Part shown: positions 5,154 through 10,051 of the stretch, piece by piece | Position numbering within the stretch: the first letter of the stretch is position 1 | Layout of the letters: each line of letters opens with the position of its first letter | Origin: a virus | Lineage: Duplodnaviria > Heunggongvirae > Uroviricota > Caudoviricetes | Reading direction: 5' to 3' (one strand) | Virus record (IMG/VR): IMGVR_UViG_2526164599_000008 | DNA: 36,480 nucleotides | The notes under the pieces: model-generated | What the model saw: the letters and a program-made list of their open reading frames with translations, nothing else | Told to the model about the DNA's origin: nothing | Databases searched by the model: none | Made by a program: the position numbers and the translations under genes

Positions 5154-6320
5154 TTAAACCCCTTTGACAACGTCAGCGTTGACCTGTGGAACCCCGATTT
5201 CAGCAGCCAGATTCATGGCGGCTATTACCAGGTTACTGACGGCCAGCGGATACAGCAGGCTGACCATATTTTTACGATGACTTCCCGGATTGCTCAGGCG
5301 GGCACGTATGGCATCCACTGCGCTGGCGTCCATAATGTCCGTCAGTTGTTTACCGGCCCGTTGCAGTTTGAACGTCAGAAATTCTTCAAGGTTATTGTCC
5401 AGAGGCAGAAGTTCGACCACCTCACAGCGCTGAACGACTTCACGGACTTCCATATTGCGTTCAGACAGTTTTGTCGCCAGTTCCGGCTGACCAATTAGCA
5501 CGATGGACAGCAGTTTTTTGAAACCGGACTCCAGCTCAAAAAAGCGTTTGAGGTGTTTCAGTGTCGGAATGGGCAGACTGTGGGCCTCCTCAATCACCAG
5601 AACGTGGCTGAACCCCGCCTGGCTGCTGTCTTTCAGGACGCGATGCAACTGGCGAAAGCGGGCGTCCTGACTGCGTCTGATGCTTTCCAGTGGTGCGATG
5701 GTACTGATAATGGCTTCGGCAATCGCTGCTGCCTTCAGAGTTTTCCCTTTCACATCGTTGTCTTCCATAGCGATGATGTATGGCTCGATAACAATCACTG
5801 GCGCATTCTCGCGGTTGATACGTTCAGTCAGGTCACGGCGCAGCGTGGATTTACCCGCACCGGACTCACCGATGACGGCCATAAACCCACCATGACGTGC
5901 TGTCTGGTACAACGCCTCACGCACGTAGCGAATGTCCGGGGTGGTGAACACATCATCAGAACCCTGCATGGCTTCGTCGGCGAACGGGTCACGGAAAAGA
6001 CCAAACGCTTTTTTGGTTGCTGGAAATAACACCTGTTTTTTGAGTAACATATTCTCTTCCTCACTGAGGCTCGTTTTATCTGTGGTACCCGATGTACGGG
6101 GCGTGGCCGCGCCCTGTACAGCATCAAAACTCTTCGCTGTATCAATCCCCTGACTTTCCAGCCAGGACGCAAGACGCCGGCGCACTTCTCCGGGGCTGGT
6201 GCGGGGCCACGCGTTATGATTCACAATCTGGGCCAGCGTGGCCTCAGAAACATCGACAGCTCTCGCCACCACCGCCTGTGAAATACGGGCCTCTTTCAGT
6301 TGCTGCTTCAGTACCAGCAT
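5154..6320 (-). CDS. Transposition ATPase (TnpB / Mu B-like AAA+ protein)
   Basis: Walker A GESGAGKST and Walker B-like VLVIEEAH. N-terminal HTH-like region. Track ORF starts at a GTG (6359), but the internal ATG at 6320 has GAGGAGG 5 nt upstream and lies just after the transposase stop. Confidence 0.75.
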   Translation of the reverse strand: MLVLKQQLKEARISQAVVARAVDVSEATLAQIVNHNAWPRTSPGEVRRRLASWLESQGIDTAKSFDAVQGAATPRTSGTTDKTSLSEEENMLLKKQVLFPATKKAFGLFRDPFADEAMQGSDDVFTTPDIRYVREALYQTARHGGFMAVIGESGAGKSTLRRDLTERINRENAPVIVIEPYIIAMEDNDVKGKTLKAAAIAEAIISTIAPLESIRRSQDARFRQLHRVLKDSSQAGFSHVLVIEEAHSLPIPTLKHLKRFFELESGFKKLLSIVLIGQPELATKLSERNMEVREVVQRCEVVELLPLDNNLEEFLTFKLQRAGKQLTDIMDASAVDAIRARLSNPGSHRKNMVSLLYPLAVSNLVIAAMNLAAEIGVPQVNADVVKGV

Positions 6321-9025: not shown

Positions 9026-9334
9026 TTACAAACGACTACCTGAAATAACACGTTGGTTGATTTCGTTAATGCGATCCTGTGCACGTGCCATCTCGTTACT
9101 GTGGGCCATGGCGATCTGCAGCAACTGGATGCCTGGTGCGAAACGCCCGTTTTCTAGTTTCAGAGCCAACCCTTCTTCAATGAGCGTGTTAAGTGCCCGG
9201 TTGATGTTTGCCGGTGATTCGTGCAGTGCAACCGCTAGTTCCCCGTTAGAAACACCGTTCAAAGCGTGGCCACGTAAGGCCTTAAGAACGCGCAAAATAC
9301 GGGTACCTGAGCTTGATGTATTTGGTTTATTCAT
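9026..9334 (-). CDS. Small winged-helix DNA-binding protein
   Basis: 102 aa. RILRVLKAL...GVSNGELAVALHESPANINRALNTLIEEGL resembles an IclR/MarR-type winged HTH. Confidence 0.45.
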   Translation of the reverse strand: MNKPNTSSSGTRILRVLKALRGHALNGVSNGELAVALHESPANINRALNTLIEEGLALKLENGRFAPGIQLLQIAMAHSNEMARAQDRINEINQRVISGSRL

Positions 9335-9561
9335 GACGCCTCCTTAAGGATACCGGGGGTAACTTCTTTACCTATTGCAACCGATAGATCTCGCAAAATC
9401 CGATAAGTCAAACGACCGCGAGGTAGTTCACTTTTACCAGCCCAGCGACTGACTGCCTGGGTGACTGTTCGTGGTTCATAGCCCGCGTTAAGCGCGAACT
9501 GGCGCAAGCTACTGCCTCGTTCAACCAGCCGTGCCCGAACTTGTTGTTTGTTCATATGCAC
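9331..9561 (-). CDS. ner: Ner-like DNA-binding regulator (Ner/Nlp family)
   Basis: 76 aa. First gene of the leftward early operon, divergent from the repressor. HTH-like segment SLRQFALNAGYEPRTVTQAVSRW. Confidence 0.55.
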   Translation of the reverse strand: MHMNKQQVRARLVERGSSLRQFALNAGYEPRTVTQAVSRWAGKSELPRGRLTYRILRDLSVAIGKEVTPGILKEAS

Positions 9562-9643
9562 CGTGTTCCTGTTAGGTTATGATGTACTCTATTGGGTCTA
9601 TTGTACACACCCAAATGAGTGTGTCAAATTGAGATATGTTCAA
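9562..9643. promoter_or_regulatory. Divergent early promoter/operator region between ner-like and repressor genes
   Basis: About 80-bp intergenic region containing the inverted repeat ACACAC-N8-GTGTGT (around 9606..9625), a candidate operator. Confidence 0.45.
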
Positions 9644-10051
9644 ATGAGTACAAAAGAGAGATTGCGTGAAGTGATGGATGCTAATGGCATGACAATAAAG
9701 GCATTATCTAACTTATCAAAAATTCCATATCGCTCACTTCAAAACTATTTGCGTGGAGAGAGAGAACCAAACGCAGAGGCTCTTGTTGCGCTAAGCACCC
9801 ATTTGGGTGTATCGATCGATTGGCTACTTACCGGTAAAGAACATATTCCATCTAAAGAAATTGTTGCTGTACCAACACAACATCAATTCAGCCCGTCAGA
9901 CCTTAAAATGCTTGAACTTCTAAACCAGTTAGATCCTGAGGTTCGGCGAGATCTCATGCGAGGCGCTGAAGAAAAACAGCGTGTGATTGAGATGGAAAAA
10001 CAACTGAAGGAATTATCCGCAACGATTGAGCGGTTAAAAAATGTGGGTTAA
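9644..10051 (+). CDS. Immunity repressor, XRE-family HTH (Mu c-like role)
   Basis: Track ORF 9548..10051 trimmed to the ATG at 9644 (MSTKERLREVMDANGMTIKALSNLSKIPYRSLQNYL), a classic HTH_3 pattern. Divergent from the early operon. Confidence 0.65.
   Translation: MSTKERLREVMDANGMTIKALSNLSKIPYRSLQNYLRGEREPNAEALVALSTHLGVSIDWLLTGKEHIPSKEIVAVPTQHQFSPSDLKMLELLNQLDPEVRRDLMRGAEEKQRVIEMEKQLKELSATIERLKNVG

Follow-up and report, generated by a model that had tools for sequence, protein, structure and literature searches.

The phage BcepMu (accession: AY539836, genus Bcepmuvirus) encodes a protein labelled 'cro/cI repressor' (gp17) on one strand and gp16, gp12, gp10, the gp09 transposase and gp08 on the other, with its late genes on the strand of the repressor. 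The same organisation was found in IMG/VR record IMGVR_UViG_2526164599_000008, the 36,480 bp stretch of viral DNA analysed here and referred to below as the window. In it a repressor gene, which we have designated rep, diverges from a small helix-turn-helix (HTH) gene that heads an early transposition operon. We consider it likely that this region is the lysis/lysogeny (immunity) switch of a BcepMu-type transposable Escherichia coli prophage. The segment was 100% identical to part of the E. coli RIVM_C036569 chromosome, which has been annotated with the Prokaryotic Genome Annotation Pipeline (PGAP). It differs from BcepMu in that BcepMu has extra genes (gp11 and gp13–gp15) in between, that the two repressors have only the HTH in common (27% identity over 48 amino acids (aa)), and that the 74-aa product of the small gene could not be aligned to gp16 by BLASTP.

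Phage Mu, to which the original prediction had referred, also has a repressor gene divergent from an early operon that is headed by an HTH protein of ~75 aa and continues with transposition genes. In addition, several operators overlap the Mu early promoter, and the small protein does not share the repressor operators but has its own site, which is annotated in the Mu record and would have a counterpart in the window. However, the window transposase showed 69% identity to BcepMu gp09 and no similarity to MuA by BLASTP, the repressor showed no similarity to Mu c (best BLASTP E 0.05 over 35 aa), and the similarity of the small protein to Mu Ner was weak and below threshold. The window also encodes a winged-helix (WH) protein and a DUF3102 protein between ner and the transposase, of which the WH gene is absent from Mu, and its late genes are on the opposite arm. 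As the transposase is gp09-like and the WH protein gp12-like, and as there is no similarity to MuA or Mu c, the prophage was assigned to the BcepMu type and not to the Mu type.

DicA, encoded by the cryptic prophage Qin of E. coli K-12, is reported to bind a 20-nt inverted repeat in the dicA–dicC promoter region (PMC3441716). Like the window repressor, DicA is 135 aa long and has a small divergent gene as its neighbour; the context differs, as the window is a transposable phage and not a lambdoid remnant, and the small ner-like partner was unrelated to DicC. A further comparison is with the λ CI/OR system and with other systems that loop DNA between operators, namely λ OL–OR, lac O2 in lacZ, gal OI in galE and TP901-1 OD. 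These have in common with the window adjacent dyads (spaced by 23–29 bp) over divergent promoters and a distant auxiliary operator. Unlike λ CI, the window repressor has no Peptidase_S24 domain and its partner protein does not appear to share the operators; unlike the looped systems, the putative auxiliary operator of the window lies within the codons for the DNA-binding domain of the repressor itself and covaries with them. The plan, found here in a known phage lineage, is a familiar one: the genes for the repressor and the small regulator point away from each other, and dyad operators cover the early promoter. To this the window adds a probable four-operator layout, a 300-bp exchangeable cassette, domain-swapped repressors and conserved motifs that bracket rep.

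Both open reading frames (ORFs) of the divergent pair put forward in the original prediction, an XRE-type repressor and a Ner-like gene, were present and annotated as coding sequences by PGAP. The repressor gene rep (9644 bp–10,051 bp, + strand) encodes 135 aa and corresponds to WP_000104670, with its start at the ATG at 9644 as had been proposed. This start was borne out by a set of 20 related loci, which were fetched from one-genome-per-species contigs via alignment of homologues of the 74-aa protein and which include Pantoea, Mixta, Serratia, Lelliottia, Azotobacter, several Pseudomonas and one Porticoccaceae metagenome-assembled genome. In these the rep ATG, followed by a conserved N-terminus, is ~88 nt from the ner ATG. 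An upstream ATG at 9548 had been named as the alternative start; the codon there is TTG, and the in-frame 5′ extension is interrupted by stop codons in many of the 20 relatives. An intergenic region of ~80 bp had been predicted, and such a region exists with a size of 88 bp from ATG to ATG (9556 bp–9643 bp). In all loci the sole purine-rich, Shine-Dalgarno-like stretch of both rep and the ner-like gene is 10–11 nt before the ATG (9628 bp–9646 bp and 9556 bp–9571 bp in the window, with equivalents in L008–L027), a spacing that is unusually long and conserved.

The repressor consists of an XRE/HTH_3 domain (residues 1–65), a linker and a conserved helical C-terminal domain. Pfam family HTH_3 (PF01381) was matched between residues 7 and 61 with 44 bits against a cutoff of 23. 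The protein also aligned with DicA from residue 1, with 34% identity across 124 of its 135 residues (E 7e-14), and this similarity over both domains and the full length indicates that the repressor is DicA-like. It is not a formal member of the DicA subfamily, as its score on NF007257 (NCBIfam) was 40.3 bits, under the cutoff of 101. The top sequence matches in the Protein Data Bank (PDB) were the HTH domains of ImmR, DdrO and P22 C2. A Pfam scan gave no Peptidase_S24 match, the C-terminal 70 aa being the helical DicA-like domain, and no LexA box of note was found in the window; neither RecA-stimulated self-cleavage nor a LexA-controlled antirepressor was therefore supported. PADLOC returned generic HTH matches for rep and the WH gene and nothing else.

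A single strong promoter was found in the region. This early promoter (Pe-like; 9600 bp–9627 bp, − strand) has a −35 hexamer TTGACA (9627 bp–9622 bp), a 16-nt spacer and a −10 hexamer TACAAT (9605 bp–9600 bp), scored 11/12 in a sigma-70 consensus scan, and is directed into the early transposition operon with a predicted start near 9593. The sequence ACACAC-N8-GTGTGT, which had been suggested as the operator of an immunity switch, was found exactly between 9605 bp and 9624 bp. This predicted main operator, O1 (ACACACCCAAATGAGTGTGT), fills the spacer of the promoter and touches both hexamers. As a 20-mer it has a dyad symmetry of 8/10, and the ACACAC-N8-GTGTGT pattern was unique in the window even when one mismatch was allowed (~0.10 chance matches expected).

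The position of the palindrome was conserved between loci and its sequence was not. Nearly all of the 20 loci have a −35 TTGAC, a spacer of 16 or 17 nt, a −10 and then 44 nt to the ner ATG, and nearly all have a palindrome in the spacer. In the Pseudomonas loci L018–L023 this palindrome is ACGCAC-N8-GTGCGT, in which both arms are altered symmetrically relative to the window. It is TACTC-N4-GAGTA in Lelliottia and TCCCAnnnTGGGA (TCCCA-N3-TGGGA) in L025. In L011–L014, in which the XRE domain is swapped for a Phage_CI_repr-like domain, it is TTATTCAnnnTGAATAA (TTATTCA-N3-TGAATAA). Comparison of the N-terminal 65 aa of rep from L011–L014, L016, L017, L019 and L027 with those of the window showed that two unrelated types of DNA-binding domain, XRE HTH_3 and Phage_CI_repr-like, are fused to one conserved C-terminal domain at a conserved junction, (D/S)WLLTG. 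The Ner-like protein was 60–100% identical across the loci while the palindromes varied. As the palindrome follows the DNA-binding domain of the repressor and the Ner-like protein is near-constant, the comparison indicates that the palindrome is the operator of the repressor and not a Cro-type site shared with the Ner-like protein. The proposal of an operator at an immunity switch was thereby strengthened on three counts: the palindrome is in a promoter that leads into the early operon, it covaries with the repressor DNA-binding domain, and the segment that carries it is swapped between prophages.

Further sites related to O1 were found on both sides of it. O3 (ATGTACTCTATTGGGTCTAT; 9582 bp–9601 bp) is a candidate operator over the start site of the early promoter and an exact match to ACYCWWWWGRGT; the half nearer rep is specific to the cassette and the half nearer ner is conserved. 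O2 (ATATGTTCAAATGAGTACAA; 9634 bp–9653 bp) is a weak candidate positioned across the rep start codon, with the 9-mer CAAATGAGT in common with O1. The candidate O4 (AAGCACCCATTTGGGTGTAT; 9793 bp–9812 bp) is intragenic, in the rep codons for LSTHLGVS at 188 bp from O1, and with 16/20 positions was the best match to O1 in the window. Three exact copies of the motif ACYCWWWWGRGT, in which the core ACYC-N4-GRGT has WWWW at its centre, were found in the 36,480 bp, all between 9586 bp and 9808 bp (223 bp). The ACYC-N4-GRGT core is common to the window and its closest relatives, and the eight half-sites gave the consensus AYRYACYCAW.

Each locus was then scanned with its own O1. Own-type sites recurred at about −23, at +29/+30, and at +188 (XRE-type domains) or +173 to +176 (CI-type domains) relative to O1. 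The Fisher-combined block-maximum p-values over 12 specificity groups were 3e-15 (−23), 1e-13 (+29) and 7e-19 (+188/+175), all of which are optimistic since they rest on offsets picked post hoc, on loci that are related to one another and on an E. coli background. The +29/+30 site is strong in other specificity groups (16/20 in L012 and 15/20 in L025), and the equivalent of O4 at +188 or ~+175 was present in nearly all groups. In 9 of 10 groups, enumeration of synonymous codons ranked the observed O4 codons within the top 0.3–5% for match to the O1 of the same phage (Fisher p 6.5e-9), with the offset in this test fixed on the observed sequence. The robust qualitative point in these alignments is that O4 changes together with O1, the sites being TGGGTCCCAATTGGGAATTT in L025, ACGCACCAATTTAGGTGTAA in L023 and CCTTACTCATTTTGCGTAGA in L019.

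It could be argued that only O1 is a real operator, and that O2, O3 and especially O4 are look-alikes that arise from shared ancestry, AT-rich promoter DNA and coding constraints. The 11/20 match of O2 to O1 in the window and the post hoc choice of offsets are in keeping with this, as are the position of the ner-proximal half of O3 in a block that may be conserved for other reasons and that of O4 in a conserved peptide region, where the average synonymous variant already matches ~12/20. The confinement of all three exact core matches to 223 bp of a 36 kb sequence speaks against it, and so does the fact that O4 follows O1 in groups whose operators are unrelated (L025, L023, L019 and L012), even when the domain type and the encoded peptide change. 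We therefore regard this explanation as rather unlikely and hold that there are probably four operators, one of them inside the rep gene, rather than one. The distance of 188 bp between O4 and O1 is compatible with looping.

The sites and the domain that would read them were found within one exchangeable segment. This specificity cassette of ~300 bp (9596 bp–9900 bp) comprises the rep-proximal half of O3, the early promoter, O1, O2 and the part of rep that encodes the linker and the DNA-binding domain, within which O4 lies. Alignment of the window with the Limnobaculum locus (L011) showed 88–98% identity up to 9595 bp, 25–68% identity between 9596 bp and 9915 bp and 98–100% identity between 9916 bp and 10,035 bp, after which identity was lost past ~10,075 bp; the C-terminal 50 residues of the two repressors were the same. 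From this profile, the exchanged unit begins at the O3 centre and ends in the repressor linker. Among 5426 complete E. coli genomes, 626 contain DNA related to the WH end (early region) of the query, which indicates that BcepMu-type prophages are common, and only 39 matched at least 80% of the query, these 39 being the ones with the immunity type of the window. These comparisons indicate that prophages which are otherwise alike differ by exchange of the ner/rep segment.

The common E. coli allele, represented by phage PhiKM and E. coli H105, encodes a true gp16-family protein of 62 aa and an XRE repressor of 118 aa. Its design is the same, with TGCTCATAATTATGAGCA in the spacer of a promoter TTGATA-17-AATAAT and a half-site at the rep ATG. 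The intact ORF for the 118-aa repressor is not annotated in the PhiKM record (L002, PQ738613, 6770 bp–7126 bp), which lists just a 41-aa ORF on the opposite strand there; PGAP annotates the equivalent gene in E. coli H105.

The small divergent gene (9331 bp–9555 bp, − strand, ATG at 9555) is the first gene of the early operon and encodes 74 aa, annotated by PGAP as a hypothetical protein (WP_001041677). The protein fell in phrog_8503 (function unknown; E 5e-35). It had been labelled Ner-like, a description that stood for its position and did not stand for its family scores. The position agreed with that of Ner, as the protein is of similar length (74 aa against ~75), its ATG is 44 nt past the −10 and the early genes follow downstream. 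PF13693 (HTH_35, the Ner family), which is carried by Mu Ner itself and 120 relatives, was matched at residues 2–43 only, the score of 16.7 bits (E 0.007) being lower than the cutoff of 25. TIGR04111 (the BcepMu gp16 family) gave 29.1 bits (E 7e-7), short of its cutoff of 34, compared to 88 bits for gp16 itself. BLASTP to Mu Ner showed 33% identity over 42 aa (E 5e-4), and a profile–profile comparison with the Ner-family alignment gave a probability of 76% (E 2e-5) over the HTH core; hhalign of the 74-aa family with gp16 gave 61%. Three motifs are invariant in the alignment of Ner relatives: N-terminal D-W-H, W-P-K-G-E and C-terminal I-W-P-S-R-Y. In the alignment of the 74-aa family, DWH and IWPSRY are missing and WPKGE is replaced by RW..LPRGR. 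The AlphaFold2 model was a four-helix HTH (predicted local distance difference test score, 94), and a PDB sequence search found nothing meaningful. We regard the protein as distantly related to the Ner and gp16 families and as the occupant of the Ner position, an assignment with weak support in these comparisons. In E. coli TUM17543 (L005, 2835 bp–3145 bp) PGAP does not annotate the ner-like gene, even though the DNA aligns well.

The leader of the ner-like gene contains a non-coding block of ~25 nt (GTGTTCCTGTTAGGTTATGAT, given as the + strand; 9556 bp–9581 bp) that is retained in loci as far apart as those of E. coli and Pseudomonas and is better conserved than the adjacent coding sequence. 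A second conserved element, the palindrome TGTTCC-N5-GAACA (10,054 bp–10,070 bp), directly follows the rep stop codon and marks where the conserved arm ends on the right. It recurs as TGTTCCyATTrGGAACA, 1–3 nt past this stop codon, in almost every one of the 20 loci, which range from E. coli through Pseudomonas to the Porticoccaceae genome. The leader contains a related half-motif (TGTTCCTGTTAGG; 9564 bp–9576 bp), so that the two elements together bracket rep, and a search for TGTWCC-N5-RGAACA across the rest of the window, the prophage ends included, found no further copies above chance (one copy). Both elements are absent from the PhiKM-type allele, which retains the WH gene. The leader block is a candidate binding site of the Ner-like protein. 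RNA folding showed no significant structure in the ner leader (z −0.5), the rep 5′ region (z −0.1) or the post-rep palindrome (z −1.6), and an RNA-element reading of the leader was dropped on the first of these values; an Rfam scan of 8900 bp–10,300 bp with E up to 1 gave no match. The post-rep palindrome was also considered as a standard terminator, which was rejected as there is no consistent T-run across the loci, and no intrinsic terminator was predicted between 8900 bp and 10,300 bp.

A λ-type switch, in which the small divergent protein would be Cro-like and compete with the repressor for O1–O3, would fit the arrangement of divergent genes with operators between them, as in cI/cro and dicA/dicC, and the λ-repressor-like HTH fold of the small protein. 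It is difficult to reconcile with the Ner-like protein being 96–100% identical among the window, L008–L010 and L011/L012, since the repressor DNA-binding domain and the operators of L011/L012 differ wholly from those of the window and an unchanging protein cannot read changing operators. Furthermore, the conserved DNA is in the leader of the ner-like gene itself and not at O1. A Cro-like role is for these reasons improbable, and a repressor with operators of its own, next to a small protein with a separate site, is preferred.

According to the mechanism that we propose, the repressor, which has an XRE HTH and a helical C-terminal oligomerisation domain and would not be cleavable, would bind, in dimeric form, 20-bp dyads whose half-site is AYRYACYCAW. 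On O1 it would occupy the spacer of the strong leftward early promoter, on O3 it would cover the start site of that promoter, and on O2 it would sit at its own start codon. O4, 188 bp away inside the rep coding sequence, would probably permit a DNA loop. Occupied operators would silence the early operon (ner-like, WH, gp10-like, transposase, MuB-like and further genes to gam, gemA and mor) and so maintain lysogeny, and would probably autoregulate rep too. The Ner/gp16-like protein, as the first early product, would act at its own site and not at the repressor operators; by analogy with Mu Ner it may lower both repressor synthesis and early transcription. The conserved TGTTCC block of the ner leader is the best candidate for this site.

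Several observations weigh against this reading. The limits given above for the offset and codon statistics are among them, as are the weakness of O2 in the window and the Pseudomonas group of L018, in which no clear O2 and O3 sites were found. The Ner-like protein was under the curated thresholds of both the Ner and the gp16 family, and its predicted fold fitted generic XRE domains as well as it fitted Ner. A promoter scan of the + strand of the intergenic region found none at the threshold of the tool; TATGAT (9578 bp–9583 bp), at the rep-proximal edge of the leader block, and TATTGT (9599 bp–9604 bp) are unranked candidates for the −10 of the repressor promoter. Finally, the literature searched contained no operator or binding, transcript or induction study of this phage group, and only in silico labels for BcepMu gp16/gp17 and KS10 gp13/gp14.

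The WH gene (9026 bp–9334 bp, − strand) encodes a stand-alone IclR-type winged helix of 102 aa. It had been described as an additional gene that is not a feature of Mu, which was confirmed; in the BcepMu lineage it is present as the orthologue of gp12, with 36% identity between the two proteins, and the comparisons indicate that it is a core gene of that lineage. The combination of an N-terminal HTH_IclR and a C-terminal effector-binding domain that characterises the IclR family was not found in the protein. The ATG of the WH gene overlaps the stop codon of the ner-like gene as ATGA, and the two genes are translationally coupled. The role of the WH protein could be regulatory, or accessory in transposition.

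As the WH gene is present in all BcepMu-type prophages regardless of immunity allele, and as its product has an IclR-type DNA-binding fold, the WH protein might be the true second regulator, with the 74-aa protein serving in transposition or in an accessory role. However, the exchanged immunity segment does not include the WH gene, and the TGTTCC motifs travel with the 74-aa allele and are missing from the WH-carrying PhiKM-type phages. Every allele has a protein of the Ner/gp16 type encoded next to the promoter. It is thus very doubtful that the WH protein takes the place assigned here to the Ner-like protein.

A more specific form of the proposed switch is put forward tentatively, with a likelihood somewhat short of even. 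In this form the switch may be a self-contained cassette of ~300 bp that carries the DNA-binding domain together with the embedded O4, with O4 closing a repression loop and the Ner-like protein acting on the TGTTCC motifs that bracket rep. If so, one recombination event, with junctions at the O3 centre and the rep linker, would move the reader and all its sites together, and binding of the Ner-like protein to the bracketing motifs would provide a second layer of control that is independent of specificity. An operator inside the repressor coding sequence that covaries with the promoter operator would also be a tidy case of the co-evolution of regulatory and coding DNA. The general picture of temperate phage control is unchanged by this, and the system is not of a new kind.

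BcepMu-type relatives are found in Salmonella, Klebsiella, Pseudomonas and Burkholderia, and in the literature searched the immunity region is labelled by similarity only. The operator set, the cassette and the start codon should make it easier to predict which prophages are homo-immune and to build reporters and inducible derivatives. They should also make it easier to test how a non-cleavable DicA-like repressor becomes inactivated.

The nearest phage records to the window were Klebsiella phage KP12, Escherichia phage Phi06_2974 B and Escherichia phage PhiKM, the last of which is classified in Bcepmuvirus. Characters of this genus were found in the window, namely an rve (Tn552-like) transposase, an ExeA-like ATPase, homologues of gp10 and gp12, and early and late arms that diverge from the repressor region. 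The early operon has the order ner-like, WH, DUF3102, transposase and MuB-like, and continues to Gam, GemA and Mor, with genes that overlap or are tightly packed; the DUF3102, AAA_22, Mor, GemA and Gam domains were all present. The three genes that follow the WH gene (5154 bp–9015 bp, − strand) encode a DUF3102/gp10-like protein (8104 bp–9015 bp), the DDE (rve) transposase (6331 bp–8100 bp) and an ExeA/MuB-like ATPase with AAA_22 (5154 bp–6359 bp as an ORF, with the PGAP start at 6320). The three have Pfam and PHROG matches and PGAP annotation. With an intact transposase, MuB-like, Gam and Mor genes and lysis, head and tail genes, the genome in the window is apparently complete and of the BcepMu type.

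That the pair is a domesticated regulator, which controls cargo genes or silences a defective element, is hardly probable: the repressor is similar to DicA from a cryptic prophage and cargo genes follow rep with no predicted terminator between, but the genome is apparently complete, relatives have been deposited as phage genomes (sources: sewage and a clinical isolate), and the switch is constant between loci while the cargo varies.

On the strand of the repressor, rep is followed by two cargo genes, an opposite-strand methylase gene and then the lysis, head and tail genes. The cargo slot between rep and the methylase gene (10,122 bp–12,337 bp) contains genes for an NA37 nucleoid-associated protein (10,122 bp–11,129 bp) and a 401-aa membrane protein (11,132 bp–12,337 bp) with a weak match to the Kiwa defence protein KwaA (E 8e-5). 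The contents of this slot differ in KP12/HH107 and in TUM17543. As no terminator was predicted between rep and the cargo genes, the lysogen may express them. The Dam-type DNA adenine methylase gene (12,327 bp–13,097 bp, − strand), located between the repressor arm and the lysis genes, is kept in KP12, PhiKM and the E. coli relatives, and transcription of it past the gene end would run antisense into the cargo genes and rep. At the other end of the prophage, GemA (1894 bp–2385 bp) and Mor (1533 bp–1922 bp), the latter the last gene of the early operon, are near the left prophage end. A host gene for a PAP2/dual-specificity phosphatase (1 bp–1317 bp) adjoins the Mor end. As the early operon stops at Mor beside this host gene, the left end of the prophage should fall between ~1320 bp and 1530 bp.

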